Assembly (NCBI RefSeq): GCF_000020225.1
Contig: NC_010655.1
Location: 1,920,001 to 1,952,000, forward strand
Direction of reading: 5' to 3'
Source of the DNA: Akkermansia muciniphila ATCC BAA-835
Lineage (GTDB): Bacteria; Verrucomicrobiota; Verrucomicrobiia; Verrucomicrobiales; Akkermansiaceae
DNA: 32,000 nucleotides
A program made the translations under genes and the position numbers. A model generated the notes under the pieces. The model searched no databases and had not been told where the DNA came from. It was given only the letters and a program-made list of their open reading frames with translations. This document shows, in pieces, positions 8,167 through 32,000 of this stretch (its first letter is position 1; the number at the start of each line of letters is the position of its first letter).

Positions 8167-8194
8167 GGAAGAATGGGGGAAAAGGACGCGTTTG

Positions 8195-9577: not shown

Positions 9578-9627
9578 GGGTAAAAGAGAATCAGGTTAGA
9601 CTAGGATTGTATTCGGAAGGGAGGAAA

Positions 9628-11052
9628 TCAGGAGAAAAACTGGAGCACCAGCGTGGGGAAGAAGCCGAAGACCGCCAGGGCGATGACCAGGAAGCAGTTG
9701 GCCGCCCGTTCGGAGGGCTGCAGTCCCGTGGCGTAGGCGGAGGCTTTGGACAAATCTCCCTGGAAAATATTGCGGTAGGCCCTCAGCATGTATACCGCGC
9801 CGATGACCAGTCCCCAGAGGCACAGGATGGTGGCGATTTGAACGGGGCCGAAGCCGTTGCTGAAACCGGCGAAACCGGAGAAGAAGACCATGAATTCCCC
9901 CGGGAAATTGGCGAGGCCGGGGAGGCCGATGGAAGCCATGCCCGCCAGGCCGAAAACGAAAGCCATGCGCGGCAGCCTGGTGCTCAGTCCGCCCAGAGAG
10001 TTGATTTCCAATGTGCCTGTTTGCTTTTCAATCTGCCCGCAGAGCAGAAAGAGAAGGGCGATTGTCAGGCCATGGGCCAGCATCAGCAGGGCAGCTCCTT
10101 TCAGCGCCCAGGGATTGGCTTCCGCAGAACCGGAAACTACCAGGGCGGCGAAAGCCAGGAAGATATAGCCCATGTGCATCACGGAAGAGTTGCCCAGCAA
10201 CAGGTCCAGCCTTTTCTGGTTGACGGTTACGTACCCCACCCAAATGACATTGCAGACGAGCAGGACCAGCAGGATATTCGTCCAGGGAAGGAATCCTGTT
10301 TCCATCAGCGGCTGGAACATGAAGAGCCCGTACAGGCCAAATTTTTTAAGCACTCCGGCATGCATCATCGCTACCGGAGCGGGAGCGGATGCGTATGCGG
10401 GGGCTGCCCAGGAATGGAAGGGGAAGAGGGAAATCAGCGTGCCGAACCCGGCGATGAGCAGGGCCCCGATGAGTTCCGCGTGGGCAAGTTCGCGCCCGCT
10501 GGCCATGAAGTCTTTCAGGCCGGAGAAGGTGAAGCCTGCCTGCGTACCGATCATCAGCAGGGCTGCCAGCAGCACCATGGAGGCAAGCCCCAGGTAAAGC
10601 GTGGCGCGCCAGGCCGTGGTGCGGCGGTCGCCGCGTCCATACAGGCCGATCATCACGAAGGTGGGGATAAGAGCCAGTTCATGGAAGGCGAAGAAGGAGA
10701 TTATGTTGTCGGACAGGAACGCCCCGGTGGCGCCTGCGGAAATCAGAAGGGCGGAGTTGTACCAGGAAGCTTCCCCCCCCTGGGGCGGGTTGGTGCCCAA
10801 TACGGTGGCGAAGGTAACCAGGATGGTCAGCAGCAGCATTACTTTGGACAGGGCCGGAGCCAACGTGAGCTGGAGGTCCATCCCTTCAAAACGGGACCAG
10901 CAGGAAGAACAGCCGTCAAAGCTAACCAGGGCCCAGATGCCGAGGGCCAGCGTCAGGGAGGCGCTGAGCAGGGCTGTCGGGCGTGCGGGCGCCTTGCACA
11001 GACCGATGAGGGCCGCGGCAATCAGAGGAATGAGAACAAGCCAGATAAGCAT
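9628..11052 (-). CDS. nuoM: NADH-quinone oxidoreductase subunit M
   Basis: This is an antiporter-like subunit (HSWAAPAYASAPAPVAMMHAGVLKKFGLYG). The tracked ORF reaches 11121 and would overlap the nuoL 3' end. ATG 11052 (MLIWLVLIPLIAAAL) starts 22 nt after the nuoL stop and gives a normal N-terminus. Confidence 0.9.
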   Translation of the reverse strand: MLIWLVLIPLIAAALIGLCKAPARPTALLSASLTLALGIWALVSFDGCSSCWSRFEGMDLQLTLAPALSKVMLLLTILVTFATVLGTNPPQGGEASWYNSALLISAGATGAFLSDNIISFFAFHELALIPTFVMIGLYGRGDRRTTAWRATLYLGLASMVLLAALLMIGTQAGFTFSGLKDFMASGRELAHAELIGALLIAGFGTLISLFPFHSWAAPAYASAPAPVAMMHAGVLKKFGLYGLFMFQPLMETGFLPWTNILLVLLVCNVIWVGYVTVNQKRLDLLLGNSSVMHMGYIFLAFAALVVSGSAEANPWALKGAALLMLAHGLTIALLFLLCGQIEKQTGTLEINSLGGLSTRLPRMAFVFGLAGMASIGLPGLANFPGEFMVFFSGFAGFSNGFGPVQIATILCLWGLVIGAVYMLRAYRNIFQGDLSKASAYATGLQPSERAANCFLVIALAVFGFFPTLVLQFFS

Positions 11053-11074
11053 GGTATGTGATTGGTTGGTTAGG

Positions 11075-12907
11075 TTAGCAGGAATAGAAGACGGTAAAGT
11101 AGATGACCAGGAGCAGGCCAATGCCGAAGAGAGCCGTATAGGCGGCCATGTTGCCGGACTGCAGGCGGCGCAGCAGGGAGCCTATGGCGGCGGTCAACCG
11201 CGCCAGTCCGCCAACGATGAGGCCGGAGATGATGAACTGGTCCATAAAGTCGATGATGGCGGCCAGAACGCCCTGGACTCCCCTGACCAGCACTTTATCA
11301 TAGAACAGATCAATATAAAGGCGGTTGGCGAGAGCCCGGGAAACGGCATTGCCGGAGAGTTTGTCAGAAGCCGGGGAGCCTGCGTAGAAGGCAGCCGCCA
11401 GCAGGATTCCGAGCACCAGCGCCCCCATGGAGACGTAGAAGGGCATGCCCATGTGGAAGCTTTCGGAAACGAATCCGTTGAAAGGAACCAGCCTGTCTGC
11501 GATGAACCCGTAGCCGGAGATGAGAGCCAGGACAGCCAGAATCAGCAGGGGCACCAGCATGAGGCCGCCAACTTCCGAGGCGTGTTCCGAACTGTGGCTG
11601 CGGCTCTTGCCGAAGAAGACCACAAAGATGACACGCATCATATAGAAGGTTGTCAGCAGGGCTACGCCCGCGCCGATCCAGAAGAAGACCGGGTTTTTGC
11701 GAAGGGCTGCTTCCAGAATGGCTTCCTTGGAGAAGAAGCCGGACGTGAACGGAATGGCAATCAGCGCCATGGTGGCAATGATGAAGGTGAGGGAAGTCAG
11801 CTTCATGCGCTTCATGATGCCGCCCATTTTCCAGATGTCCTGTTCATGGTGGCAGGCGAAGATGATGGCACCGGCGCCCAGGAAGAGCAGAGCCTTGAAC
11901 CATGCGTGGGTGAAGAGGTGGAACATGGCTGCCTCCCCGGCCAGAAGTCCCAGGGCCATGACCATATAGCCGAGCTGGGAGAGGGTGGAATAGGCCAGGA
12001 CGCGTTTGATGTCATTCTGCTGGGTGGCCATGAAGGCGGCGATGACGGCCGTAATGGCTCCGATGCCGGCAATGACATTGCAGGCCAGGGCGGGGAAGGC
12101 CTCAATGCCGATGGAGTATTGAACGCGCACCATCATGTAAACGCCGGCGGCTACCATGGTGGCCGCATGGATCAGGGCGGAGACGGGGGTGGGGCCTTCC
12201 ATGGCGTCCGGAAGCCAGACGTGCAACGGGAATTGGGCGGATTTGCCCACCGCTCCGCAGAAGAGGCACAGTACCGTAATGTTCAGCAGGTTTTCACTGA
12301 TTCCTGCGGGTATTTCCATCAGGCTGAAATCCAGCGTGTTGGTCAGCGCCCAGAGAGTCAGAATGCCGATCAGGAAGCCGAAGTCCCCGACGCGGTTGCA
12401 GATGAAGGCTTTTTTGGCGGCGTTGGCGGCAGTGTCCCGTGTGTACCAGTGGCCGATAAGCAGATAGGAGGAGAGGCCCACCAATTCCCAGAAGATAAAG
12501 GTCATGGCGATGTTGTTCGCCAGGACGATGCCCGTCATGGAGAACATGAAAAGGCTCAGGCATGCGAAGTAGCGTGTTTTGGCCTTGTCGTCCGCCATGT
12601 AACCCAGAGAGAAAACATGGACCAGCAGGCCGATGCCCGTGACCACCAGCATCATGCGGGAGGAAAGGGGATCCAGCACGAAACCCAGGTCCACGGAAGA
12701 GATGTCGGAAATCGGGAGCCAGGAGAAGGAATCGGATCCGGTCCGGTCCAGCAGACCCAGGGAAAGGACGAAGGTCGCCAGGCAGGAGAAGGTGGAGGTG
12801 AGGGCTGCGACGTCAGGACGTTTGGTCAGCAGGAACCAGTCAAAGGCGGCTACGACCAGCGGCAGGAAGAGCAGAAGCCAGGTGTATTGAATATCAATAT
12901 TGAACAT
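11075..12907 (-). CDS. nuoL: NADH-quinone oxidoreductase subunit L
   Basis: At 610 aa it is the largest antiporter-like subunit (FIFWELVGLSSYLLIGHWY, HVWLPDAMEGPTPVSALIHAATMV), with a C-terminal lateral-helix region. Confidence 0.93.
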   Translation of the reverse strand: MFNIDIQYTWLLLFLPLVVAAFDWFLLTKRPDVAALTSTFSCLATFVLSLGLLDRTGSDSFSWLPISDISSVDLGFVLDPLSSRMMLVVTGIGLLVHVFSLGYMADDKAKTRYFACLSLFMFSMTGIVLANNIAMTFIFWELVGLSSYLLIGHWYTRDTAANAAKKAFICNRVGDFGFLIGILTLWALTNTLDFSLMEIPAGISENLLNITVLCLFCGAVGKSAQFPLHVWLPDAMEGPTPVSALIHAATMVAAGVYMMVRVQYSIGIEAFPALACNVIAGIGAITAVIAAFMATQQNDIKRVLAYSTLSQLGYMVMALGLLAGEAAMFHLFTHAWFKALLFLGAGAIIFACHHEQDIWKMGGIMKRMKLTSLTFIIATMALIAIPFTSGFFSKEAILEAALRKNPVFFWIGAGVALLTTFYMMRVIFVVFFGKSRSHSSEHASEVGGLMLVPLLILAVLALISGYGFIADRLVPFNGFVSESFHMGMPFYVSMGALVLGILLAAAFYAGSPASDKLSGNAVSRALANRLYIDLFYDKVLVRGVQGVLAAIIDFMDQFIISGLIVGGLARLTAAIGSLLRRLQSGNMAAYTALFGIGLLLVIYFTVFYSC

Positions 12908-12930
12908 GTTCGTGGAGTAGTGTGTTGCTC

Positions 12931-13248
12931 TTAATCTTTCAGCGTGTTGAGATCTTGCGTGCTGGCCGTGCGCCTGGCCCTGTACAGGGAGACGATGAGG
13001 GCTAGGCCGATAGCCACTTCCGCTGCGGCGATGGTCAGGATAAAGATGGAGAGGGCCTGGCCGTCATAGTTGGGCAGGCCCATAGTGCCCTGGGCGCGGG
13101 AAAACGCTACCAGGGACAGGTTGGCAGCACTGAGCATCATTTCCAGGCACATGAAGATGACGATGATGTCGCGCCGGACAATCACCCCCATCAGGCCGAT
13201 GGCGAACAGGACGCCGGAGAGGATCAGATAATGCGTAAGAGGTATCAT
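12931..13248 (-). CDS. nuoK: NADH-quinone oxidoreductase subunit K
   Basis: It is 105 aa with 3 TM helices, and carries the conserved motifs (FMCLEMMLSAANL, LTIAAAEVAIGLALIV). Confidence 0.92.
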   Translation of the reverse strand: MIPLTHYLILSGVLFAIGLMGVIVRRDIIVIFMCLEMMLSAANLSLVAFSRAQGTMGLPNYDGQALSIFILTIAAAEVAIGLALIVSLYRARRTASTQDLNTLKD

Positions 13249-13273
13249 GGTGATGGCTGTGGTAAGGGGTTCT

Positions 13274-13984
13274 TTATTTTCCGGAAGGGCGGCGGCTCAG
13301 CACGACGACGCCGATGGAAGCCACCAGCAGGGCCAGACCGGCGATGACCAGGCTCCGGTTGTATTTGTCAAACAGGGTACGGCCCAGCAGGGCGGTGTCC
13401 GGGAATTCTCCGTTGTCTATCTCCTCACGGATGGTGGTGCCTTCCGGATAGAGGTGGGCGGAACATTGGGGGGAGAGGGGGGGGAGAATGACGGAAGGGG
13501 CGCCGTTGTTGCGAAGGCCGCAGGCGGGAGTTTCCATTCCGGTTTTGGAGGGGGCTGCGTCCTCCTGCCCGATTTTCAAATCGTTCCAGGCCTGTTCCGC
13601 GCTGGCCATCGGGCAGCGGTGCGTTTCTTTGGCGCCAGGCAAAGAATAGATGATGCCAATAAGCTGGCCGAGGAAGAGGCCGGCGATGATGATACCGATA
13701 GCGACGGAGAAAGGCCTGCTGAAGGGGGATGTTTCCTGCTTCACATTCAGCAGCATGATGATGAACGCGAAGAGCACCATAATGGCCCCGGCGTATACAA
13801 GGATTTGGAGAATGCCCAGGAAGTGGGCTCCCAGCCCGATCATGACGGCGGCGGTGGCTCCAAAGGAAAGAGCCATCATCATGGCGGAGGAGACGGGGTT
13901 GCGCATGAAGACGACCATCAGGGACAGGACCACGGCCAGGGCCCCGAAAACGTAAAAAAGTATGTCGCTGGCAAAGATGTTCAT
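13274..13984 (-). CDS. nuoJ: NADH-quinone oxidoreductase subunit J, with an enlarged TM4-TM5 loop
   Basis: The NuoJ core is present (ILVYAGAIMVLFAFIIMLLN). At 236 aa it is long for this subunit; the excess is a roughly 90-aa hydrophilic loop. Confidence 0.88.
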   Translation of the reverse strand: MNIFASDILFYVFGALAVVLSLMVVFMRNPVSSAMMMALSFGATAAVMIGLGAHFLGILQILVYAGAIMVLFAFIIMLLNVKQETSPFSRPFSVAIGIIIAGLFLGQLIGIIYSLPGAKETHRCPMASAEQAWNDLKIGQEDAAPSKTGMETPACGLRNNGAPSVILPPLSPQCSAHLYPEGTTIREEIDNGEFPDTALLGRTLFDKYNRSLVIAGLALLVASIGVVVLSRRPSGK

Positions 13985-19767: not shown

Positions 19768-21012
19768 TTAACGGTCGCATTCGCCCATCACGAAGTCGAA
19801 GGAGCCGAGAATGGCCGGAACGTCGGAAACCAGGTGGCCTTTCATCAGTTCCGGCAGGATGGACAGGTTGCAGAAGGAGGGGGAGCGCATGCGCAGGCGG
19901 TTGGGAAGCCCGCCCCCCTTGGAGTCCAGGAAGAAACCCAGCTCTCCCTTCGGGTTTTCCGCGGCAAAGTAAACCTGCCCGGCAGGGGCGTTCACCCCCA
20001 TGGTCGTCGTCATGAACTGGCGAATCAGGGATTCCATGTCCGTCAGGACTTTTTTCTTTTCAGGCAGCGTGCCTTTGGTGTCCACCATGTTGATGGGGCC
20101 GTCCGGCATGGTTTCAATGACTTGGCGGATGATGCGCAGGGACTGGCGCATTTCTTCAATGCGCACGGTAAAACGGTCGTAGCAGTCTCCGTGTTCGCCT
20201 ACGGGGACGTCGAATTCGTAATTTTCATATCCCAGATAGGGGGTGAGTTTGCGCAGGTCCCGCTTAATGCCGCTGGCTCGCAGGTTGGCCCCCGTAATAC
20301 CCCAGGAAAGCGCTTTTTCACGGCTGATGACGCCTACGCCCTGAAGACGGTCAATGAAGATTTTGTTTTTGAGCAGGAGGGCTTCCGTTTCATCAAGGGT
20401 TTTGGCCGCTTCATCGCAGAAGACGAGCACTTCCTTGAGCATTTCATTGGGAACATCACGCGTCTGTCCGCCGATGCGGGTATAGGAGGAAGTAAAGCGC
20501 GCCCCAGTGAGCTGTTCGTAAAAATTATGGATTTTTTCACGTTCCTCATAACAGTACAGGAAAACGGTCATGGCGCCTACGTCCATGCCGTACACGCCTA
20601 CGCCCAGGATGTGGGAGGAAAAGCGGGAAAGTTCCAGGGCCAGTACGCGCAGGGCCTGTCCGCGGGGCGGCAGTTCCCATCCCAGCAGTTTTTCCACCGC
20701 GCAGGCATAGGCGATGTTGTTGGACAGGGGGGCCAGGTAGTCAAAACGGTCGGTGTAGGGAACAAATTGGTTGTACTGGATGGTTTCGCCTATTTTTTCC
20801 ATTCCGCGGTGCAGATGGCCAACCACCGGATCACAGCTGATGATTTCTTCACCATCAAGTTCCAGCACTAGGCGCAGCACGCCGTGGGTGGCGGGGTGGG
20901 AGGGGCCCACATTCAGGGTCATCGTTTCTCCGAGCGGTTCGGATGTATTGGTGAGATAGTCTGCGTTAGCGGCTGTATCTGCAATGGCGAAAGTTTTGGT
21001 GCTCGTCTTCAT
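19768..21012 (-). CDS. nuoD: NADH-quinone oxidoreductase subunit D (49-kDa subunit); first gene of the cluster
   Basis: It has MTLNVGPSHPATHGVLRLVLELDGEEI and the C-terminal FDFVMGECDR. At 414 aa it is NuoD only, not a NuoCD fusion. Confidence 0.95.
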   Translation of the reverse strand: MKTSTKTFAIADTAANADYLTNTSEPLGETMTLNVGPSHPATHGVLRLVLELDGEEIISCDPVVGHLHRGMEKIGETIQYNQFVPYTDRFDYLAPLSNNIAYACAVEKLLGWELPPRGQALRVLALELSRFSSHILGVGVYGMDVGAMTVFLYCYEEREKIHNFYEQLTGARFTSSYTRIGGQTRDVPNEMLKEVLVFCDEAAKTLDETEALLLKNKIFIDRLQGVGVISREKALSWGITGANLRASGIKRDLRKLTPYLGYENYEFDVPVGEHGDCYDRFTVRIEEMRQSLRIIRQVIETMPDGPINMVDTKGTLPEKKKVLTDMESLIRQFMTTTMGVNAPAGQVYFAAENPKGELGFFLDSKGGGLPNRLRMRSPSFCNLSILPELMKGHLVSDVPAILGSFDFVMGECDR

Positions 21013-21202
21013 GTGGATGTCCGTGCCTGGCTGAACCTGATAATGGTGCCGGATGATTATGCCACTTCACACCATGCGGGCAAGCCAAATGTCAGTTTTT
21101 TTGGCATTCCGGGGAGGTGGTGCGCGAGTCTCCTCAACTGATGAATGTTAGTCCTTTCTAACAATAAGCTTTTATATGGAACCTGCCGAATATGGGAAAA
21201 AG

Positions 21203-21420
21203 CGGATTAGGAATCCGGAGTCAACCTACAAATTTGAGAAAAAATAATTTAATGCAAATTTGCTCAGTTATTTCCGAATGGCGGGTGCCGGGAAAACAGG
21301 GCTGCCGGGCCTTATGGCTGGACGTGTCCGAACGCAGCGGAGGAGAATCTTCTTCCTTTGTAGCCGGCCTCCCTGCGTAGTCCTTTTCGGGATTCACGTT
21401 ATATGCGGATTCCTAATCCG
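21203..21420. repeat. 15-bp inverted-repeat pair bracketing a 188-bp segment (candidate inverton or operator pair) upstream of the CDS at 21434
   Basis: CGGATTAGGAATCCG at 21203-21217 and its exact reverse complement CGGATTCCTAATCCG at 21406-21420. The right copy ends 13 nt before ATG 21434. Each copy is itself a dyad, CGGATT-N3-AATCCG. Confidence 0.6.
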
Positions 21421-21433
21421 TTAGGAAAAAAAT

Positions 21434-22789
21434 ATGTTGAAGCCGAGGAGAATTTTTGTCTTTCCCATTGCTGTAACATTTTCAGTATTATTTATTTTAT
21501 ATATTATTTCATGGTTTTCCCCTATTGCCGGGGATTCCTTTATTCACGACAGGACGGGGTACCTTGGGCAGTTTCATATCCGCCATGTCTGGAAGGCCTG
21601 CGTGGACAGTTACCTGTATTGGAATCCCAGGCTGGGGGAAATGGCTGCGTTTTTTATTACTTCTGCTCCCCGGCTGGTCTGGACGGTCTTGAATCCCGTG
21701 TTTGTGCTTGCCCTTGTTCTTGGCCTTTATGTGCTCGCTCTGGGGAGAATGCCCAATCTCCGGCGGGAGTGCGGAGCATGGACGTGGTTGTTTGCTTTAA
21801 GCATGTTCGTCTCAGCCGGGGTAACCGTTTATTATGTCTGCCTGACACGCGCAGGCTCCATGAATTATGTGTGGACCGGATGCCTGATCGTATGGTTCAT
21901 GAATATTTACAGAACCAGGTGGGGGAAGCGGATAACCTCCCCTCGATGGGGCCTGTCCTCAGGATGTCTGATTTATGGGATTTTCTGCGGCGCCTGTAAT
22001 GCAGGGGCGACGATAGGAATGGCGGCGGCGTTTTGCATCATGGCCGCGGTCGGCATGTTCCGGGACCGCAGGGTGGGCGCTTATGTATGGTGCGGGTTTG
22101 CCGGCGTTGCGTTGGGAGGCCTGTTTCTATTTGCCGCCCCCGGTTTGTATTCGCGGCTTGGCCATGATTTGGGAGCGAGTGAAGTTTTGAGGAAGGGCGG
22201 TTTTTGCGCCTATGCGGAGTCTTTCGGGATATTGCTTTATTACCACGCGAGGATGTTGTGTAAAATATATGCCGTTTCCGCAGTATTAACGGGATTTTTG
22301 TTGTTCAGCGGCACGGAGCGGTGCCGGGAAGTAATCAGGAAGGAAAAGGAATCCTTCTTTTATATTCTTTTTTTATTGTTGCTGGGGTTCATCATGTCCG
22401 TTTGTTATTTTCCGGTGTGCATTCCCGCCCATCATGTTCAGTTCGTGTCGTCCCTGCCCGTTTTGGCGGCGTCAACCGTGTTGTTCTCCGTATTGTACCG
22501 GAATGAGATCATGGTGCGCGGATTGCGCGCGGTGACTGTTTGCCTTGCCGGAGCGACTTTGTTTTTCGGGGTGGTGTTCGCCCTGGAGTATTATCATGTA
22601 GGCTCTCAGGCTTTCCAGAGAGAGGAACTGATTCATAAGGCCTTCCAGGAGGGGAATCTGGAACCGGAAGTTCCTTCCATCTCTCCTCTTTTCTTTGAAG
22701 GAAAAGTGTCCGGAACGGATGGGAATTGGGGAGGGCCGGATACCAACCGCCGGTTTGGCATCCGCAAACTGGTGGTGAAAAAGCCCTGA
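21434..22789 (+). CDS. Polytopic inner-membrane protein, GT-C-like / DUF6056-like (function tentative)
   Basis: The 451-aa ORF has about 10 or more hydrophobic segments. An acidic first-loop motif PIAGDSFIHD followed by YLYWNPRLGE resembles GT-C glycosyltransferase and DUF6056 membrane proteins. No alignment was possible here. The overlapping ORF 21403..21999, in another frame, was rejected. Confidence 0.7.
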   Translation: MLKPRRIFVFPIAVTFSVLFILYIISWFSPIAGDSFIHDRTGYLGQFHIRHVWKACVDSYLYWNPRLGEMAAFFITSAPRLVWTVLNPVFVLALVLGLYVLALGRMPNLRRECGAWTWLFALSMFVSAGVTVYYVCLTRAGSMNYVWTGCLIVWFMNIYRTRWGKRITSPRWGLSSGCLIYGIFCGACNAGATIGMAAAFCIMAAVGMFRDRRVGAYVWCGFAGVALGGLFLFAAPGLYSRLGHDLGASEVLRKGGFCAYAESFGILLYYHARMLCKIYAVSAVLTGFLLFSGTERCREVIRKEKESFFYILFLLLLGFIMSVCYFPVCIPAHHVQFVSSLPVLAASTVLFSVLYRNEIMVRGLRAVTVCLAGATLFFGVVFALEYYHVGSQAFQREELIHKAFQEGNLEPEVPSISPLFFEGKVSGTDGNWGGPDTNRRFGIRKLVVKKP

Positions 22790-22799
22790 GGGAAAATGG

Positions 22800-24266
22800 C
22801 TATTTGACTATGTTCCGGGGAGTGAAGTGCATTTCCTGTTCCTCGATGCCGAATTGCCAGGTGGCCGTTTGCCACATGTTGACAGCAGGATTTTTCCAAC
22901 GGACCTGGACGGTTACGGGGCTGAGCCGCAGGGGACGGGAGGGAGTCCATTTCAAAATTTTTTCCTTGGCGTCGTACCGGGCGTTTACCAGGCCGAAGCC
23001 GGAGACGCGCATTTCCATTTGCTTGGGTTCCAAGGAGGGTTCCCCTGCCAGGGAAATGGATATATCGGGAGTCTGGTTTTTCACCACGGTATTGGCGGCC
23101 GGATAAACGGGCTGGGCCGGGGCCGGGTAGGAATTCATCTTTTTCCCGCTGCTGTTGCCAGGGGTGGCCGCCGGAGTTTCCGGAGTGGAGGGAACGTTGA
23201 AATTCAGGGCTCTGGTAAATGTCTTAGGGTCTTTGCCGAAGACCATGTAGCGGTGAATCCGCCAGCGGTCCGTGTCCTTGGTCACTTTTTTGGGGATTAC
23301 CGTAAAGGCCGCCTGGAATCCGGCGTCTTCCGCCTTGGAGATCATTTCCGGCAGGATGAAGCCGCCAGGATAGCAATAGGCCTCCACGGAAGAACCGGGG
23401 AATTTTTCCTGAAGGATTTTCCGGGAATTGCCTATTTCCGCCGTTGCCAGATCCAGAACCGCTTGTGTACCTTTCCGCTGGGCGGCCCTCCAGGATCTTG
23501 GGTACAGGTGGCTGACGGAGTGGCTGCCCAGGGTGGCGCCGTTATTCAGCATTTCCTGAATCTGGGCGGGGCTCATGGCAGAACCGCGGCCCGTGATGAA
23601 TTTGGTGTATGGGAAAATGGTAAAGGGGAATCCCGTTTCTTTCAGGATGGGATAGGCGTCCGTGTAGACGCTCTTCCAGCCGTCATCGATGGTGATCATG
23701 ACGCATTTGGCCGGAAGCTGCCTGTCCCCCAGTTTCCATTCCAGGAATTCCTTCATGGAGATGACGGGCACTCCGGACGCCTTCAGCGCCTGCATCTGAG
23801 AGCGGAATACATCCGTATTCATGCGCATTTCCGTAGCGGGAAGGGTGCGGCTGAAATCATGGTAACCCAGAATGGCTACGCGGGTTTCAGGCTGAGGAAC
23901 CGGAACGGGGGAAAAAGCCGTGGAGGGAATGGCAAGGGGTGCCTCCGCAGGTTGTACCGGGGCGTGCAGGTTCGTTTCCCCGGGAATGGGTTCCGCGTTA
24001 GGGATGGACTCCGCCAGGGGAGCGGAAGAGCCTGTCTCTCCGGGAATGGGTTCCGCCATGGGGATGTATTCATCCTTGCGGTTGGCTTCAATCAGGTCTT
24101 TGACGGGAACGATGCCGGCGGCCGGGTTTCCCTTGATGGTTCCCCCGATGACCGGGCCGGGAGCAAAGGGAAGGGGAGACGCCGGCGGCAGGTCGGGCGG
24201 AAGCTCCGCACATGCGACACCGGCTGCGATCAAGAAAACGGAAAGGAGGCCTGGGACGGAGCGCAT
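22800..24266 (-). CDS. Secreted polysaccharide deacetylase (CE4 / NodB homology domain) with a Pro-rich repeat linker and an unknown C-terminal domain
   Basis: The signal peptide is MRSVPGLLSVFLIAAGVACA. CE4 motifs are present: MITIDDGW (the TFDDG-type), LGSHSVSHLY (HSxxH) and CYPGG. The antisense ORF 22827..24287 is a shadow. Confidence 0.88.
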   Translation of the reverse strand: MRSVPGLLSVFLIAAGVACAELPPDLPPASPLPFAPGPVIGGTIKGNPAAGIVPVKDLIEANRKDEYIPMAEPIPGETGSSAPLAESIPNAEPIPGETNLHAPVQPAEAPLAIPSTAFSPVPVPQPETRVAILGYHDFSRTLPATEMRMNTDVFRSQMQALKASGVPVISMKEFLEWKLGDRQLPAKCVMITIDDGWKSVYTDAYPILKETGFPFTIFPYTKFITGRGSAMSPAQIQEMLNNGATLGSHSVSHLYPRSWRAAQRKGTQAVLDLATAEIGNSRKILQEKFPGSSVEAYCYPGGFILPEMISKAEDAGFQAAFTVIPKKVTKDTDRWRIHRYMVFGKDPKTFTRALNFNVPSTPETPAATPGNSSGKKMNSYPAPAQPVYPAANTVVKNQTPDISISLAGEPSLEPKQMEMRVSGFGLVNARYDAKEKILKWTPSRPLRLSPVTVQVRWKNPAVNMWQTATWQFGIEEQEMHFTPRNIVK

Positions 24267-24458
24267 ATCTGCAACTACTATTTTTAAGTTTTCTGTTCAA
24301 CCTTAAACTCAGGCAGGCATGACAGCCTGTTCCGTGCCGCGCGCGTTTTTTCCGGGGCATGTCTGGATTTTCCCGTTTGAATGCGTTATCGCTAAAAAGC
24401 ATGCAGACTCATTTTCCGCTCGCGGAAGAAAGGAGAGGCGTTTAGTCTGTCTGCAGAC

Positions 24459-26072
24459 ATGAGCTGTATTTGTCATTTCTTCAAAGTTCTGGCGCGCCGT
24501 GCGGGTCTGCTCACTGCCGTAGCTGCCGCCGCTTTTTTCCTGGGGGCTCCCGCCGGTGAAGCTTCGGCCCGCACGGCGGCTCCCGCTTATCCGGCCGCGG
24601 AAGTGGGGGGGGAATCCCAGTACAGCCATTTTCCCATTCCTCTCAATCATTACAATCCGGTGCCGCCGGATGCCAGCCTGTACCAGGTGCTTAGTGAACG
24701 CAACAAGCAGTCCGGCGGTTTCAACCTGGCAGTGACGCTCGTTTTCTTCGGCGCTATTATCCATACGTTTCTGGCTGGCCGCTTTGAGCGTTATTCCCAT
24801 AAGCTGGCCCTGCGCTATAAGGAAAAGCTCAAGGAAACCAACTTCCGCGTGATGCATCCGGAAGAGCGCCTCCCGGTTTCCTTCGCGTCCGCCATTTTCC
24901 ATTTTCTGGGAGAAGTGGAAGCCGTGTTCGGAATCTGGCTTATCCCTTTCATGTTCGTGTGCTGGAAGTATTATTCCTTTGAGGATTTTTCCGCTTATTT
25001 GAATTATGACTGTTCCTTCACGGAGCCGATGTTCGTGATGATTATCATGATTATCGCTTCTTCCCGCCCTATTTTCAAGCTGGCGGAATATGTCGTGAAC
25101 TGCGGCGCCAGGCTTGGGAAGGCCACGCCGGGCGCGTGGTGGATTTCCGTGATGTGCCTGGCTCCCTTGCTGGGGTCTCTGATTACGGAACCTGCCGCCA
25201 TGACGATCGGGGCCCTGATCCTAAGCAAGAAATTTTACGACCTCAAGCCGAAGAAAACCTTGATGTACGCCACTCTGGGGCTTCTCTTCGTGAATATCTC
25301 CATCGGGGGCACCCTGACGCACTTTGCAGCTCCGCCCGTAGTGATGGTGGCGGAAAAGTGGGACTGGGGGCTGGCTCACATGATCCAGCATTTCGGATGG
25401 AAGGCCGTTTCCGCCATCGTCATTTCCAATTTGGCGTATTTTCTCCTTTTCCGCAGGGAGTTCGCCCGCCTGGCTTCCCAGCAGAGGGAGTTCGACGAGT
25501 TTGACGACGCCGTTCCCCAGTCCTGGGAAGACCGCAATGACAAGATACCGTTGTGGGTGACCCTGGCGCATGTCTGCTTCCTGGTCTGGACGGTTCTTTT
25601 TGCCCATGAGCCGGTCATGTTCATCGGCAGTTTCCTGTTCTTTATCGGTTTCACATTGGCTACGCCGCAATACCAGAACCAAATGTCTCTGCGTGTGCCC
25701 ATCATGGTGGGGTTCTTCCTGGCGGGGCTGGTCATTCTGGGCGGCGTGCAGGCCTGGTGGCTGGAGCCGGTGCTGACGCGGCTGGGGGACTACGCCATGG
25801 TCGGGGCTACGCTGCTGACGGCATTTAATGACAATGCCGCCGTCACTTTCCTGGCGTCTACGGTTCCCAACCTGCCGGAAGCCGTCAAATATTCCGTGGT
25901 GGCGGGTGCTGTGACGGGCGGCGGCCTGACGGTCATCGCCAACGCCCCCAATCCGGCCGGGCAGGCCATTCTGGGTAAATATTTCAAAGGCATCAATCCC
26001 CTGTGGCTGTTTGCCTGGGCGGCTTTTCCCACTGCCATCGTGTTTATTTTCTTCACCTGCTTCGGCCATTAA
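24459..26072 (+). CDS. Polytopic membrane transporter, putative Na+/H+ antiporter family (DUF1504 / Na_H_antiport_2-like, tentative)
   Basis: The 537-aa ORF has a signal-like N-terminus, many TM segments, and the motifs NDNAAVTFLAS and GGGLTVIANAPNPAG. The family assignment is from memory of that Pfam family only. Confidence 0.7.
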   Translation: MSCICHFFKVLARRAGLLTAVAAAAFFLGAPAGEASARTAAPAYPAAEVGGESQYSHFPIPLNHYNPVPPDASLYQVLSERNKQSGGFNLAVTLVFFGAIIHTFLAGRFERYSHKLALRYKEKLKETNFRVMHPEERLPVSFASAIFHFLGEVEAVFGIWLIPFMFVCWKYYSFEDFSAYLNYDCSFTEPMFVMIIMIIASSRPIFKLAEYVVNCGARLGKATPGAWWISVMCLAPLLGSLITEPAAMTIGALILSKKFYDLKPKKTLMYATLGLLFVNISIGGTLTHFAAPPVVMVAEKWDWGLAHMIQHFGWKAVSAIVISNLAYFLLFRREFARLASQQREFDEFDDAVPQSWEDRNDKIPLWVTLAHVCFLVWTVLFAHEPVMFIGSFLFFIGFTLATPQYQNQMSLRVPIMVGFFLAGLVILGGVQAWWLEPVLTRLGDYAMVGATLLTAFNDNAAVTFLASTVPNLPEAVKYSVVAGAVTGGGLTVIANAPNPAGQAILGKYFKGINPLWLFAWAAFPTAIVFIFFTCFGH

Positions 26073-26096
26073 TGGCCGAAGCGTACTGTCACTCTT

Positions 26097-26702
26097 ATGT
26101 TTACCGGACTCGTTGAAACAACAGGAACCGTGGAAGGATTTACGCCTATTAACGGCGGAGCCAGGCTGACGCTGACCATTCCGTTCGGCCGTGAACTTGC
26201 CCTGGGGGATTCCGTTGCCGTCAACGGATGCTGCCTGACGGTGGATGCCCTGGAGGGTGAACGTATCTCCTTTGATCTGCTTTCCCAGACTCTCCGCGTC
26301 ACCAGTCTGGGAACCCTCAAGCCGGGGATGCTGGTTAATCTGGAACGCGCCATGTCCGCCATGGACCGTTTCGGAGGCCACTTCGTGATGGGGCATGTGG
26401 ACCATACCGGTACGATTGCCGCTCTGGAGCCTGCAGGGCAGGATCACCGTTTGGAGGTGCGCATTCCGGAGGAACTCACCCGCTATTGTATTGACAAGGG
26501 TTCCATCACCATTGACGGCATTTCCCTGACCATAGCCAATTTGAGCGGCTCTCTGCTGGAGTTCTGGATTACGCCCCATACTTTCGGCCGCACGAATCTG
26601 CAGAATTCCGTTCCCGGCCAGCCGGTCAATCTGGAAGTGGATATGCTGGCCAAGTATGTAGAGAGACTGTTTTCTGCCCGTGAACAACGTGCGGAGGGAT
26701 AG
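26097..26702 (+). CDS. ribE: Riboflavin synthase (alpha chain)
   Basis: It has MFTGLVETTGTV..., two lumazine-binding repeats (GDSVAVNGCCLTV; GSITIDGISLTI) and NLEVDMLAKY. Confidence 0.95.
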   Translation: MFTGLVETTGTVEGFTPINGGARLTLTIPFGRELALGDSVAVNGCCLTVDALEGERISFDLLSQTLRVTSLGTLKPGMLVNLERAMSAMDRFGGHFVMGHVDHTGTIAALEPAGQDHRLEVRIPEELTRYCIDKGSITIDGISLTIANLSGSLLEFWITPHTFGRTNLQNSVPGQPVNLEVDMLAKYVERLFSAREQRAEG

Positions 26703-26895
26703 TCCTGCCCGTGTAAGGAGAATCACATGCCGGGCATGCGGGCTGGTTTTTCCTGCCGGACAATGAAAGTGCATTCCTGTTTTCTGTAGCAGGGGTGCCG
26801 GGATGCGGAGATTTTTGAACTGGAAGCCGGGTATTGCTGTTCCGATGAAGGAAGGGCCGTGAGGGCGGAACAAAAATGCGGAGCGGATCTATTTG

Positions 26896-27756
26896 CTACC
26901 GGGCCATTCCTCCCTTTGCCGTAATCCATTTCCCGCGTTTGACGACCCGTTCAAAGAACAGACCGTGACGTTCCGCTGCCGTTTTCGTTTCTTCCCACTG
27001 GGAAGCCAGAATGCCGGAGATGACCAAAGCGGCATCCTTCTTCATGGCGGCGATGATTTGTGGAAAAGCCTTTTGCAGTATGGTTGAAAACAGGTTGGCG
27101 ACGACAAGGTCACCCTGCTGGGACTCCGAAGGTTTCCATTTGAAGACGTCTTCCACAAATAAGTCCAGCTGTTCCGCCGTAACGGCGTTGCGGACCATGT
27201 TGTGCCGGGCCACTTCAATGGCCATGGGGTCAAAATCGAAAGCCGTGGCGTGCTCCGCCCCCAGCTTCAGCGCCGCCATGGCCAGCACGGCGGTTCCGCA
27301 GCCTATGTCCGTCATGCTCCATGATGTTTTTCTGCGGGATTTGGCAGCGTCGCAGATAAAACGCAGGCAGGTGGATGTGGTAGCGTGGTCTCCTGTTCCG
27401 AAAGCCATTTCGGCGGGAACGCTCAGGATGCAGCGCGAGGGGAACTGTTTCTGCAGAGCGGCCAGATTCTCCGGAGAACTCTGCTCCGTAATGACCAGTG
27501 CGTCCCTTATTTTGAGCGGAGGGCGTTTTTCCCGCTTCTGGGTCGCTACCCAGTCCTGCGTCTTGATTTCCCTGACAGTTCCTCCAAAATATTTTTTCAA
27601 GGCCAGGGCGTCTTCTTCATCATCGCAGTAAACGGTGATTCGAACCGTTTTCCCCCCCTTGATTTTTGTAATAACGGCGTTCGGATTTCCGGCGATGCGT
27701 TCGCTCCAGGCATCTTCCCATTTGGCGGCGGAAAGTTTGTTCCAACTCCATGTCAT
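26896..27756 (-). CDS. prmA: Ribosomal protein L11 methyltransferase
   Basis: It has MAFGTGDHATTSTCL and the SAM-binding motif DIGCGTAVLAMAALKLGA...AFDFDP. The length (286 aa) is typical. Confidence 0.9.
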   Translation of the reverse strand: MTWSWNKLSAAKWEDAWSERIAGNPNAVITKIKGGKTVRITVYCDDEEDALALKKYFGGTVREIKTQDWVATQKREKRPPLKIRDALVITEQSSPENLAALQKQFPSRCILSVPAEMAFGTGDHATTSTCLRFICDAAKSRRKTSWSMTDIGCGTAVLAMAALKLGAEHATAFDFDPMAIEVARHNMVRNAVTAEQLDLFVEDVFKWKPSESQQGDLVVANLFSTILQKAFPQIIAAMKKDAALVISGILASQWEETKTAAERHGLFFERVVKRGKWITAKGGMAR

Positions 27757-27919
27757 GCAGAAAGTATGGGATTTTTCCGTCAGGGAGGCAAGAATGGATT
27801 GATTGTAACTGCATTCTCGCAGTTTTTGGGATTGTGTGGCTCTATTGTTGAAAATTTGATTTATTCAAAGAAGAATATAAAGCGTCAACTATCAAACCAT
27901 TTTATTTTCAGTATGGTTG

Positions 27920-28080
27920 CGAATTTGGAATCCGGAGTAAAGATTATTTTTTTATATTCAATGGCCAACCTGTAAGAAGAGGAAGGAATCTTGTTCTGTT
28001 TCAATCTTTTTTTCTAACAATAATTCATTGATTGTTATTTTGTTGTTTTGAATTTCGAATAACAACGGATTCCAAATTCG
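27920..28080. repeat. 15-bp inverted-repeat pair bracketing a 131-bp AT-rich segment (candidate inverton or operator pair) upstream of the autotransporter gene
   Basis: CGAATTTGGAATCCG at 27920-27934 and its exact reverse complement CGGATTCCAAATTCG at 28066-28080. It matches the repeat at 21203/21406 at 13 of 15 positions. The right copy ends 8 nt before the SD AAGGAG (28089-28094). Confidence 0.6.
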
Positions 28081-28099
28081 TACATTAAAAGGAGCGCGT

Positions 28100-31000
28100 T
28101 TGATATGCAAAAAACATCCAAATGTACAGATTATCATGAAATTATTTGCTTTTGCCATGTTGTCCTTGGTTCCTTTAGTTACTGTCTGTTCCGTTTTTTC
28201 CAAGGAAGTGGATATTTATTCAGGAACATATGGAAACGATGATGTGGAAGTATTCCAGCCGGAGGAAGTGACGTATCATCTGGCCGGAAGGGATGGCGTC
28301 TTTTATGAAGGTGCGTTTACGTTTGATAATTATAATCCGGACAAGGGCGGCGCCGGAAACAGGCAGGGTGTTTTCTCCGGCTATAGTACACATTTTTCCA
28401 GCACGGAAGGAACGTCTCTCGGCTTTCACTGTACCGGGCTTAATCCCGGAAAGAACAGTTCCGCTTCCAAATCTTTTATTTTTGTCATGGGGCCATGGGA
28501 AAGCGGGGAGGAGTTTGTCGCTCCTCAGGTTACTTTTCAGAATTTGGGCGATTTGAGCTTCATTGCGGATAATATGGACATGATCGGCATTACCGATGGC
28601 GCCACGGCCGGAACCGGTGGCGGGAGGTACGGGAAAGCTGATATTGTTTCTTTCAACAATGTAGGAAATATCGAATTCCGGGGGCTGAATCATGGGGGTA
28701 TAGGCTTCAGCCGTTTGAATTCCTTGGCTTTTACCAATACCGGGGATATTTCTTTTACGGATATGAAGATGGGATATTCTTCCAATGGCGGTGCCATTTT
28801 TATTAACCAGGGGGGGGATTCTTCCCTTTACTCCAATCCTGGAGATGGGAATATTTCTTTTGACCATACGGGAAATATTATCTTCAGGAATCTTGTTAAA
28901 ACTTCTTATTACATGAGTTCTGCGGGGATTTTTACCAATGAAGGGAGTATTTCATTTAATGATACGGAAAATATCCTGTTTGAAAATAACACGTCCACCG
29001 GAGGACCTGCGGCGATAGGCATTGGATCCATATTCTTACCGGATAACCAGCCGTCTTTGTCGTTTAGCAACATCCGGGGAGATATTATTTTTAGAAATAA
29101 TAAGGCTTCCGGAGGGAGCATGCCGGGGATGGCGGGCGCTATCACTATTTATGGATCTTTTAAGCTGGTGCAAACGGGTGATGTCCTGTTTGAAAATAAT
29201 GTGACTGATAAAAATACGGCCGGAGCCATTTATTGCGGCAATAATGAAGGGAAAAGGTTTGGAGGGCAATGGCTTTTGTCTGCGGATGGCGGGAATATCG
29301 TTTTCCGAGGCAACTTGGTTAAAGGAAGTTCGGGGGTCTTTGCCCGCGCCCTGGGGATTTTTGCTTATGCTCCCGAAAACGATTATACGGGCATATCTCA
29401 GCCCAATGGGAATTTAACCATGGATTTCCGCGCCCAGGCCGGACGAGAAATTGTATTTTATGATGGTATTGATATTGAAAGTATTACTGTAGCCATGCCT
29501 ACCCTGCATATTAACAGAATTCCGGCCGATTGGGCAGATTATGGAGGTATTCCTGTGGAGTTTGGAGGAACCGTGCGTTTTTCCGGTGCATTGACGGAGT
29601 CGTTTCTAGTTCGCAATGACGGGGAAAGTGATGGTGATTACGCGGAACGGGTGGAGACCTCCCGCAGGGTGAAACTTGAATCAAATATTATTGTGGAAGG
29701 GGGACGGCTGGTTCTTGAATACGGCATGAACCTGGCGAATGAGAGTGGGGATGTATGGCAGGGAAGTTCAAGAGTGGAGCAGGACAAACCGGTGTTTAAC
29801 CTGGCCGGCGGAGTGCTGGAAATGACGTCCGGTTCATCCATCAGCGCCCAGCAGGTGATTGTTTCCGGCCATGGCAGCGGCGCTATCCTGCGGGTGGGAG
29901 CCGCTCCCATCGGTTCCGACAGTTGGGAGGGGAAGACCTATGAACTGCCTTCCCTTTCCGCTGTCACCATTGACATGTCCCACGGGTTTGACTGGGATCT
30001 CATGCCTTTCTCGGAACGGGGGGACAGCGGTATCAACATCACCGCCTCCGGGGAATTTTTACTGGGGGGAACCATTGGAATTGCGGATACGCTGGATGAT
30101 TACGCCTCCGCCGCCTGGGGAAGGGACAGGGAGTTTGTCATTTTTAATATGGATTCTTCCAGCAAACGGCCGCAAGGAGAGCTGAAAGGGGTTATTTCCA
30201 ATACGACCCAGTCATCCACGGTTGATTCTCCCTATACCTACGGCGGTACCTGGGAATATGAATGGCGCGACATGGATGGAGATGGAGAAGATGACCAGCT
30301 GTTGGCAATTTGGAAACATGAAGCCGGATGCCGCCCGGATCAGGTCCGTCCGGAGCAGGCTGGAGAGCTTGCTCTCAATTCCCTTTGGAGTTCCGCTTCA
30401 AACGCGGCTTCTCTTGGGAATACTGCGTTGGCGCAGTTAACCCCGGTGCGGTTGTATCAGCGGTATGCACGCAATGTATGGGGAATGGGGCTGGGGGATT
30501 TCGCCCGCCAGCGTTCCCGGGGCGGCGTAGATGGTTATGACTATGACGGGGGCGGATATTCCGTTGGCATGGATTCCGATTTTGGAGGAAAGAGCGGGAT
30601 ATGGGGGATAGCGTTCGGACAAATGCACGGTTTCAGCAGGAGCCGGGATTTTAATGGGAGGATTACCCAGGATTCCCTGATGGGGAGCATTTATTGGGGG
30701 CGGATATTCCGCTCCGGCGAGCGTTCCCTGTGGACGGTGAAAGCCGATCTTACTTGGGGAATGACTGATAACTGCATGAAAAGCCGGTTCAGCAACGGTA
30801 TGGACGCTCATGGGGAATGGAACAACAGAACGTGGCTGGTCCAGGCGGAAGTTTCCAGAAGCATTCAGTATGCAGGAGGATGGACTGTGTCTCCGTTTTT
30901 GAGGATGGAGTTTACACATGGCACGGAGGCTTCTTTTCTTGAAGACGGCAGCTATGCCAGAAAATTTGAAGGAGCGGTTTTGCGCCGGTTGTCCATCCCG

Positions 31001-31300
31001 GCAGGTGTGAGTGTTGAGAGAAGTGGTGACTGGAAAGGCAGGCACTGGATGCAGGTGCTCCGCCTTTCCTATGTGGGAGATGCTATTCAGGATGTGCCGG
31101 AGGCTTCCGTTTACAGCATATACAGCGACATTTTCTGGAGGGCCCGTGGTGTCCAACCAGCCCGCCATGCCGTACGCGTGGAGTATGATGCCGCCTTGCA
31201 GTGGAATGACCGCTGGACGGTTTATGCCGGTTATGGCATGGAAGCCCGGGGAAGCTCCGTGTACCACCGCATAAATGCGGGCGTATCCAGGGCGTTTTAG
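28100..31300 (+). CDS. Autotransporter outer-membrane protein with a Pmp-type (GGA[ILV]/FxxN) beta-helix passenger
   Basis: The signal peptide is ...MKLFAFAMLSLVPLVTVCSVFS. About 7 Pmp-like repeats span aa 180-420 (NGGAIFI, IIFRNL, ILFENN, IIFRNN..AGAITI, VLFENN..AGAIYC, IVFRGN). The C-terminal roughly 300 aa form a beta-barrel domain ending GVSRAF with a terminal aromatic residue. TTG 28100 lies 5 nt after AAGGAG; an in-frame ATG at 28136 is the alternative start. Confidence 0.88.
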   Translation: MICKKHPNVQIIMKLFAFAMLSLVPLVTVCSVFSKEVDIYSGTYGNDDVEVFQPEEVTYHLAGRDGVFYEGAFTFDNYNPDKGGAGNRQGVFSGYSTHFSSTEGTSLGFHCTGLNPGKNSSASKSFIFVMGPWESGEEFVAPQVTFQNLGDLSFIADNMDMIGITDGATAGTGGGRYGKADIVSFNNVGNIEFRGLNHGGIGFSRLNSLAFTNTGDISFTDMKMGYSSNGGAIFINQGGDSSLYSNPGDGNISFDHTGNIIFRNLVKTSYYMSSAGIFTNEGSISFNDTENILFENNTSTGGPAAIGIGSIFLPDNQPSLSFSNIRGDIIFRNNKASGGSMPGMAGAITIYGSFKLVQTGDVLFENNVTDKNTAGAIYCGNNEGKRFGGQWLLSADGGNIVFRGNLVKGSSGVFARALGIFAYAPENDYTGISQPNGNLTMDFRAQAGREIVFYDGIDIESITVAMPTLHINRIPADWADYGGIPVEFGGTVRFSGALTESFLVRNDGESDGDYAERVETSRRVKLESNIIVEGGRLVLEYGMNLANESGDVWQGSSRVEQDKPVFNLAGGVLEMTSGSSISAQQVIVSGHGSGAILRVGAAPIGSDSWEGKTYELPSLSAVTIDMSHGFDWDLMPFSERGDSGINITASGEFLLGGTIGIADTLDDYASAAWGRDREFVIFNMDSSSKRPQGELKGVISNTTQSSTVDSPYTYGGTWEYEWRDMDGDGEDDQLLAIWKHEAGCRPDQVRPEQAGELALNSLWSSASNAASLGNTALAQLTPVRLYQRYARNVWGMGLGDFARQRSRGGVDGYDYDGGGYSVGMDSDFGGKSGIWGIAFGQMHGFSRSRDFNGRITQDSLMGSIYWGRIFRSGERSLWTVKADLTWGMTDNCMKSRFSNGMDAHGEWNNRTWLVQAEVSRSIQYAGGWTVSPFLRMEFTHGTEASFLEDGSYARKFEGAVLRRLSIPAGVSVERSGDWKGRHWMQVLRLSYVGDAIQDVPEASVYSIYSDIFWRARGVQPARHAVRVEYDAALQWNDRWTVYAGYGMEARGSSVYHRINAGVSRAF

Positions 31301-31323
31301 GAAACGTCAGCACGGATAGAAAA

Positions 31324-31358
31324 AAGGGCACGTTTTCGAAGGAAACGCGCCCTTTTTT
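31324..31358. terminator. Bidirectional rho-independent terminator shared by the autotransporter gene and malQ
   Basis: AAGGGCACGTTT (31324-31335) pairs with AAACGCGCCCTT (31343-31354) as a 12-bp stem with one mismatch. It is flanked by an A-run upstream (31321-31325) and TTTT downstream (31355-31358), so a U-tract follows on either strand. Confidence 0.8.
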
Positions 31359-31395
31359 GATACTGCGGGGGGGATGTTCCGGCAGGGGGGGACAG

Positions 31396-32000
31396 CTACA
31401 ATGTTTTGCCGTTCGGCCACATCAGCATCCGTTTCAGGAAGCGTTCGTTGTTGACGGTGATCTTCGGGAAGAGGCGTTTGCTGGATTCCTTGAGCGCCCT
31501 GATGGCGTCTTCACCCTGCAGCGGCGTGCGGCCAGATTCGTCGATGATGGTGCGCAGCCATGCGGTCTGTGGCATGCCGCATGCTTCCACGGCCTTGAAG
31601 GGCATGCGTTCCCTCCAGTTGGTCCCTCCCGTAGTGCCGGGAATATTGAGCCGTTTGTTGATGCCGAAGAGAGCAGGCCAGAGAATGGCCGCATAACGGG
31701 AACGGGAACGGAACAGAGCGTTGTACATGGCCGTCTTGATTTCCTGGTTCCAGTAGGAAAGACAGGTTTCAGGCTGCATGCCGGAGAAATCCGCAAACCA
31801 TTTCAGAAGGCGCGCTCCGTCCTCCGCCTGGCGCACGATGTTTTCCTGTTCCGGGCTGGACGGCGTTTTTGGGGAGCCGTTCTCCCACAGGCCCAGCTTG
31901 CGGGCGCGTTCGATTTTCGCGTAGCTGTCGTTCCATGTCTGCATGATGGTTTCGAAATCATGCGTTCCGAACGCCGCAAAGGAGCATTCGTGATATTCTT
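31396..32000 (-). CDS. malQ: 4-alpha-glucanotransferase (amylomaltase, GH77), C-terminal part; the gene runs off the right edge
   Basis: The reading frame stays open upstream of the tracked Met to position 32000 (...EYHECSFAAFGTHDFETIMQTW...). It carries GTHD and the C-terminal NIPGTTGGTNWRERMP motif typical of MalQ. Confidence 0.8.
   Translation of the reverse strand, partial: EYHECSFAAFGTHDFETIMQTWNDSYAKIERARKLGLWENGSPKTPSSPEQENIVRQAEDGARLLKWFADFSGMQPETCLSYWNQEIKTAMYNALFRSRSRYAAILWPALFGINKRLNIPGTTGGTNWRERMPFKAVEACGMPQTAWLRTIIDESGRTPLQGEDAIRALKESSKRLFPKITVNNERFLKRMLMWPNGKTL

Follow-up and report, generated by a model that had tools for sequence, protein, structure and literature searches.

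An invertible DNA segment upstream of a Pmp-type autotransporter gene in Akkermansia muciniphila, and a possible split-promoter arrangement at its arms

The DNA analysed, referred to as the window, is a stretch of 32,000 nucleotides of the Akkermansia muciniphila ATCC BAA-835 genome (contig NC_010655.1, positions 1,920,001 to 1,952,000 of the forward strand), and coordinates given without a contig are positions within it. Two pairs of short inverted repeats were found in the window, each enclosing a short segment directly upstream of a gene; they are called inverton 1 and inverton 2, and their features are listed in Table 1. Inverton 1 is located between prmA, which is encoded on the minus strand to its left, and a gene for a Pmp-type autotransporter, a putative surface adhesin. 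Inverton 2 lies between nuoD (minus strand) and a gene for a membrane protein of the DUF6056 / GT_STM0557_N type (plus strand). The window further contains the nuo operon as well as genes for transport and housekeeping functions. Thousands of assemblies encode a PrmA identical to that of the window, among them complete A. muciniphila genomes of 2.66-2.89 Mb, and NCBI assigns a small ORF that crosses the left arm of inverton 1 to A. muciniphila. At a separate site of the window, a perfect 13-nt inverted repeat with a 2-nt gap (3326-3353, ATGATGGCCTCCG / CGGAGGCCATCAT) overlaps the start codon of a POT-family transporter gene at 3353.

Table 1. Features of the two invertons and of the genes beside them (positions in the window)
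Feature	Position	Strand	Remarks
Inverton 2 left arm, CGGATTAGGAATCCG	21203..21217	.	Repeat search
Inverton 2 invertible segment	21218..21405	.	188 bp, 49% G+C
Inverton 2 TTGACT box	21219-21224	-	Inside the invertible segment
Inverton 2 right arm, CGGATTCCTAATCCG	21406..21420	.	ATG of the DUF6056 gene follows after 13 nt
6.5-kb segment between the switches	21421..27919	.	DUF6056, polysaccharide deacetylase, Na+/H+ antiporter, riboflavin-synthase-like gene, prmA
DUF6056 / GT_STM0557_N-type membrane protein gene	21434..22789	+	Pfam DUF6056 1.4e-31; downstream of inverton 2
Inverton 1 left (gene-distal) arm, CGAATTTGGAATCCG	27920..27934	.	Asymmetric centre TGG; junction in flipped L082 and L141
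-35-like box TTTACT (AGTAAA on the plus strand)	27936..27941	-	1 nt inside the left arm; family GTCAA/GTAAA box; putative function
Inverton 1 invertible segment	27935..28065	.	131 bp; reverse-complemented in L141, partly in L082
Inverton 1 right (gene-proximal) arm, CGGATTCCAAATTCG	28066..28080	.	Repeat search, L141
-10-like hexamer TACATT	28081..28086	+	Directly outside the proximal arm; putative function
Pmp-type autotransporter gene, 1054 aa	28136..31300	+	Pfam Autotransporter beta-domain 1.3e-38; weak ChlamPMP_M, Chlam_PMP
Poly-G tract G8, in frame, in the autotransporter CDS	28810..28817	+	Candidate slipped-strand switch

The two arms of inverton 1 were exact reverse complements of one another, as had been predicted, and enclosed 131 nt with a G+C content of 26% compared with 55.6% for the whole window. 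The near-identical second pair that the same prediction had placed at 21203/21406 was present and perfect as well, with a gap of 188 nt. Each arm is a 6-3-6 palindrome of the type CGGATT-N3-AATCCG, the central triplet of which is asymmetric, so that the arm has a direction. Both repeat pairs exceed chance. Perfect inverted 15-mers no more than 800 nt apart occurred twice in the window, compared with a mean of 0.06 in 100 shuffles, and the degenerate arm motif gave four matches where 0.35 were expected, a number reached by none of 100 shuffles. Within the interior of inverton 1, at the end that carries the box, a T7 run (27946-27952) was T6 in the contig L099 and altered in L092.

Downstream of the proximal arm, the predicted layout of 8 nt, the sequence AAGGAG (28089-28094) and a further 5 nt was confirmed. 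The codon that follows is TTG 28100, which is in frame and begins 19 nt after the end of the arm, whereas gene callers mostly place the start at ATG 28136, 55 nt after it. A further ATG at 28105 is out of frame in the window. The adjacent poly-A tract (28109-28114) varied by lineage, with A6 in 31 contigs, A5 in 13 and A4 in one; A6 sets TTG 28100 in frame and A5 sets ATG 28105 in frame. Owing to this frame polymorphism and to the choice of the gene callers, the start may lie elsewhere than at TTG 28100. The variation between A6 and A5 indicates that the conserved start may be ATG 28136, and that AAGGAG may not serve the autotransporter.

Because the repeat arms are perfect, only sequences that span flank, arm and interior reveal the orientation of the segment. 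A metagenome collection was scanned for the left flank joined to the arm, which yielded an unselected sample of 39 contigs; 35 of these left junctions showed the orientation of the window and one, on the contig L082, was flipped. Positions 1-2894 of L082 corresponded to 24999-27934 of the window and positions 2880-3012 to 28080 down to 27948, the strand switching exactly at the arm. Nine further assemblies (five complete genomes and four metagenome contigs or MAGs) all had the window orientation. A spurious ORF of 69 aa (27766-27975), which crosses the left arm and whose C-terminus depends on the orientation, was used as an additional probe. At least 250 contigs on record encode its window-type protein and a single one the predicted flipped type (P0047), which was found by exact look-ups; a homology search with the ORF flipped in silico returned two distant proteins only. 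The contig encoding P0047, L141 (JGI 3300029595, 139.5 kb), showed a complete inversion of 27920-28080: its positions 1-8169 corresponded to 19775-27934, 8155-8315 to 28080 down to 27920, and 8301-12238 to 28066-32000, with flanks collinear over 8 kb and 4 kb.

Inversion of the segment, as put forward in the original prediction, was thus seen at the assembly level in two contigs, in both cases exactly at the arms. Inverton 1 is a real DNA inversion switch of which both orientations exist in natural populations, and in assemblies the flipped state is seldom encountered (roughly 1-3%). Two other contigs, L105 and L086, were considered as further rearrangements at the arm and were rejected, as they carry Firmicute genes (YbaK-like, SpmB-like and sortase-like, from translated ORFs judged by eye). 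Both are low-coverage contigs from the human gut in which Akkermansia sequence passes into Firmicute sequence no more than 6 nt (L105) or 50 nt (L086) from the left arm. Contig ends made by a variable switch seem to be prone to false joins, which calls for caution in assembly-based inverton calls. Since such chimeras occurred among low-coverage contigs of the same scan, L082 taken alone is weak evidence, while L141 is long and clean.

Inverton 2, the pair at 21203/21406, is a working switch as well. The flipped form was seen in the complete genome CP024740.1 (L126) and in L099, a contig of 98 kb, and both types of junction were present in L094. ORFs that exist only when inverton 2 is flipped (P0043 and P0045) were found in four further contigs, compared with about 127 of the reference type. 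The two invertons also recombined with one another. In the contig L091, the left flank and arm of pair 1 ran directly into the pair-2 interior in reverse-complement form (27934 to 21420, reversed), a junction which indicates that the 6.5 kb between the arm at 21406 and the arm at 27920 had been inverted. A protein from another contig, P0041, reads through the same junction. The contig L118 covers exactly 21410-27942 and L110 stops at 21406, ends of the kind that assemblers produce at sites that vary within a sample. In some strains, the arms of pair 2 have the centre TGG and are identical to those of pair 1 at 14 of 15 positions. In the strain represented by L091 the two arms differ at one position, so that the crossover point could not be mapped from this contig. 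Recombination between the pairs is direct evidence for a shared recombinase, one of the two explanations originally suggested for their near-identity, the other being a common regulator site. As a single arm motif is common to all switches, the arms of neighbouring switches could recombine, and exchange between switches means that larger rearrangements, extending to housekeeping genes, are within reach of a shared recombinase.

A Pfam scan of 18 large ORFs in the window detected no recombinase. In agreement with the earlier expectation, the enzyme is therefore most likely encoded elsewhere and acts in trans. In two contigs of other lineages, a gene for a 335-aa Xer-like tyrosine recombinase was observed at a distance of 5 kb from a switch that belongs to the same family as inverton 1 (L131, 8850-9857, minus strand; L132, 8581-9588, minus strand), adjoining a gene for an AAA_14/DUF4143 ATPase. 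The Xer-like family is very diverse (1,652 clusters at E<=1e-20); several of its few named members are from Akkermansia, and many members lie on short contigs. The size of this family, with more than 1,600 diverse tyrosine recombinases, allowed no link between the enzyme and the switch, and the protein could be either a mobile-element integrase or a candidate invertase.

We regard inverton 1, with considerable confidence, as a working inversion switch of the Akkermansia CGGATT-N3-AATCCG family that controls the autotransporter gene. A site-specific recombinase encoded elsewhere would pair the two 15-bp arms, and strand exchange would flip the 131-bp segment between prmA and the autotransporter gene, by which transcription of the latter would be reversibly altered. 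The same enzyme would act on the sister switch before the DUF6056 gene and would also join an arm of one switch to an arm of the other, by which the intervening 6.5 kb would be inverted. The flipped contigs and the motif family support the prediction that expression of the autotransporter is phase-variable; as far as the effect on transcription can be judged from the sequence, inversion very probably turns this surface protein on and off.

How the inversion might act on transcription was suggested by a comparison of 11 invertons of the family. Their interiors could be aligned only at a box that lies 2-3 nt inward of one arm (GAGTAAAG, GAGTCAAC, AAGTCAAC, AGGTCAAG, GGGTCAAG, TTTGTCAAG, TTGTAAAT, TTGTCAAG and CTTGTCAAT). 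A GTCAA or GTAAA box was present in ten of the 11, and the exact sequence GTCAA in seven (chance P about 5e-15). Read outward, the arm-side box is TTGACn and resembles a -35 hexamer. A hexamer resembling a -10 element (TACATT, TAAATT, TAACTT, TACTAT, TATGTT, TAGAAT and others) was found 0-2 nt outside the proximal arm. The -10 scores were higher in the gene-proximal than in the distal flank in all 11 invertons (Wilcoxon P = 0.0005), and the proximal scores also stood out against an AT-rich null (P about 5e-5) and against local controls (Fisher-combined P = 2e-4). Box, 15-bp arm and hexamer combine at a spacing of 16-18 nt only in the flipped state, which was the case for ten of the 11 invertons. 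For inverton 1 the flipped composite is TTTACT-N16-TACATT and is physically present in L141, and at the orthologous locus of L139 the pattern TAnnnT is kept as TACGGT.

On account of the box, the fixed register of the -10-like hexamer and the spacing that arises only after flipping, a split promoter is proposed. In this arrangement the -35 element (TTTACT) would ride on the segment, the arm would form the 16-nt spacer and the -10 element (TACATT) would stay fixed beside the gene, so that only the -35 would be mobile; the orientation of the window, which is that of the majority, would be OFF and the flipped orientation ON. We give this proposal about an even chance. The original prediction had located the promoter within the bracketed segment, of which the AT-rich, inverting segment before the gene was confirmed, while the comparison suggests that merely the -35 part of the promoter moves with it. 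Several observations weigh on the proposal. The TTTACT box of inverton 1 matches at four of six positions only, and the window orientation also offers ATAACA (four of six) at the same place. The transcription start predicted by the split promoter, near 28093, would fall inside AAGGAG. Candidates for the -10 element were poor for inverton 2 (TAGGAA) and for the switch of L002, and the 11 invertons may share ancestry and are thus not fully independent. The GTCAA box could also be an accessory site of the recombinase instead of a -35 element.

The last point belongs to a more conventional explanation, in which a complete promoter lies inside the 131 bp, GTCAA is a site of the recombinase or of an accessory factor, and the window orientation could be ON. 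This is the textbook design of fimS and of the Bacteroides capsule promoters, and the segment is indeed very AT-rich. An 'Akkermansia promoter motif' inside invertons is mentioned in the literature, and according to PMC13343947 the ON state of the validated cps1 switch predominated in mice, from which it follows that a majority orientation need not be OFF. Against a complete internal promoter, no sigma-70-like site with nine of 12 matches was present on either strand of 27935-28065, and the 11 interiors share no alignable block apart from the arm-side box. Nor does such a promoter predict that -10-like hexamers are enriched outside the proximal arm at a fixed register. We consider it a possible but rather doubtful explanation. 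A promoter outside the switch appears unlikely. Here the segment would act as an orientation-dependent leader, with a terminator or an RNA structure, as in cwpV and flgB of Clostridioides difficile. A sigma-70-like site directed towards the gene does lie to the left of the switch (TTGAAA-N17-AAGAAT, 27848-27876, plus strand), two T7 runs are on the sense strand in the window orientation, and the arms would pair if transcribed (folding z-score -2.85). Promoter-like matches in this region, however, did not exceed the level of shuffled sequence (2 versus 1.8), no terminator-like hairpin was found in 27700-28200 and no Rfam family in 20900-28300, and an external promoter leaves both the conserved TTGAC box and the -10 register unexplained.

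It is also very improbable that no recombination occurs at all, i.e. that the 15-mers are operators of a looping dimeric regulator, or due to chance, and that the flipped contigs are artefacts. Each arm is a 6-3-6 palindrome, as operators often are, and chimeric contigs do exist in the same data. Nevertheless, the flip points of two independent contigs coincide exactly with the arms, one contig being 139 kb long and containing both flanks, and the sister switch was flipped in a finished genome. Arms of 15 bp are shorter than typical assembly k-mers and for this reason should not confuse an assembler. The central triplet, although it varies between pairs (AGG, TGG, GTT, ATA, GAC, TTT, CCG), was exactly complementary within all 11 pairs. 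Viral contigs carried the arm only singly, at chance level and without pairs, and gave 0 matches for the arm together with the GTCAA box; a megablast search of a phage collection with the locus gave no match. Inversion within this family has, moreover, been validated experimentally, according to PMC13343947, and for other members of the family both orientations have been reported from reads of a clonal culture. With inversion observed, the operator pair and the RNA stem that had been named as alternatives in the original prediction are not needed.

The poly-G tract within the autotransporter gene suggests a further level of variation. The tract was G8 in 23 contigs, G7 in five (L126, L085, L112, L114 and L141) and G5 in one (L099), numbers in which homopolymer sequencing errors may be included. 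G7 causes a frameshift that splits the autotransporter into parts of 259 aa and about 795 aa. L141, the contig with the complete inversion of inverton 1, has G7. Phase variation by a poly-G tract is documented in A. muciniphila for Amuc_1413 (PMC13055324). The G8/G7 tract may accordingly be a second, slipped-strand switch of the autotransporter, or it may reflect homopolymer sequencing error. Variation between contigs in the length of the passenger region was also observed, namely a deletion of about 76 nt in L119 (28256-28333), a tandem duplication of 505 nt in L111 (29250-29754) and a deletion of 263 nt in L085 (29339-29602). A family-wide split promoter with TTGACn 1-2 nt from the arm, a shufflon-like exchange of arms and poly-G as a second layer would, taken jointly, fall somewhat short of an even chance.

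Switches of the same family were also found upstream of prmA in three other Akkermansia species (L002, L004 and L006). Their interiors differed and the genes behind them were unrelated, encoding a 1,648-aa protein, a 489-aa protein and another one, and no Pfam domain was found in these cargo genes. L003 had no switch upstream of prmA. The closest species-representative genome, L001, with a PrmA identity of 99%, is without 27873-30647, i.e. without the switch and most of the autotransporter gene. Judged from these sequences, the intergenic site upstream of prmA (27868-30648) is a hot spot. Autotransporter genes with 26-49% identity in other lineages have switches of their own (L129-L133, L136, L138 and L139). 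L129 and L130 encode an identical 1,058-aa homologue, which is 49% identical to the autotransporter of the window, and the switch upstream of it was present in opposite orientations (L129, 328-478; L130, 394-541); the arms of this switch themselves contain TTGACA (CGGATTGACAATCCG). In L005, which represents another Akkermansia species, a switch of the family (13221-13436) was observed 20 nt upstream of a gene for a Dam-family DNA adenine methyltransferase (12361-13200, minus strand), next to which a 430-aa gene, possibly encoding its nuclease, is located (11076-12368, minus strand). After flipping, this switch would read TTGACA-N17-TAGAAT, and the locus is a candidate phase-variable methylation system.

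A. muciniphila is under development as a probiotic; between strains, both colonisation and the influence on the host vary. A Pmp-type autotransporter could plausibly serve as an adhesin or be a target of the immune system. If inversion, and perhaps also the poly-G tract, switches this protein, clonal cultures would be mixtures, and the reference orientation, which may be OFF, would not reflect the state in the gut. The proposed layout of the family would make ON and OFF states predictable from sequence for dozens of Akkermansia switches. If the split-promoter reading is correct, the 6.5-kb inversion would in addition transfer the -35 box from one switch to the gene behind the other.

The kind of element to which inverton 1 belongs is already known. 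As had been stated in the original prediction, invertons of gut Verrucomicrobia have been reported in genome-wide surveys (PMC11892184, PMC10028968), and in the latter, a long-read survey, Akkermansia had the most intergenic invertons per genome. The repeat motif CGGATT..AATCCG is from Jiang et al. 2019, as quoted in PMC13343947, where a switch beside cps1 was shown by PCR-restriction digest and qPCR to turn the capsule ON and OFF. PMC11892184 describes a motif 'group 138', set apart from five groups of Bacteroidota, with 32 invertons in A. muciniphila ATCC BAA-835; these are enriched near PEP-CTERM proteins, and one of them lies beside two autotransporter genes (2092093-2092283). The published motif, the 32 invertons and the validated cps1 switch together establish the kind of element. 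Inverton 1 resembles these invertons in motif, intergenic position and size range (about 100-350 bp), in its place beside a surface-protein gene, in having both orientations in gut samples and in a recombinase that is not adjacent. Its arms agree with CGGATT..AATCCG at 11 of 12 fixed positions, the one mismatch being the outer half-site CGAATT, and are mutually complementary at 15 of 15. It differs from the published invertons in flipping rarely in assemblies, and its locus differs from the two named in PMC11892184 and PMC13343947 (2092093-2092283 and cps1). By its coordinates the locus was not found in the main text of this literature, the part that was searched, and it may possibly be catalogued already. 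The split-promoter layout, the recombination between invertons and a poly-G tract within the gene are not described in the searched portions of PMC13343947 and PMC11892184, and a literature search for 'split promoter' with DNA inversion returned no paper with the term, which is not proof of novelty. We therefore regard the split-promoter register, the recombination between two switches and the G8/G7 tract as hypotheses added to a known system and not as a new kind of system.

Among systems of other bacteria, the capsule-promoter invertons of Bacteroides fragilis are similar in that many scattered short segments with one repeat motif control surface structures and are served by an enzyme acting in trans. 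They differ in phylum and in repeat sequence, and depend on the global serine recombinase Mpi; the arms described here read CGRATT-NGG-AATCCG and do not follow the Mpi/Tsr-type consensus. The promoter of Bacteroides invertons (TAnnTTTG type) lies wholly inside the segment. The fimS switch of Escherichia coli, inverted by FimB and FimE, likewise consists of short inverted repeats around a few hundred bp upstream of an adhesin operon and has ON and OFF states, but its repeats are of 9 bp, its promoter is complete and internal, and its recombinase genes are adjacent, whereas the scan of 18 large ORFs of the 32-kb window detected none here. Insertion sequences form hybrid promoters from an outward-facing -35 element at the end of the IS and a resident -10 element. 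If the split promoter exists, it would be similar to these in that a -35 element which moves is placed at the correct distance from a -10 element which does not; it would differ in that the move is a reversible, programmed inversion and that the recombination site itself forms the spacer.
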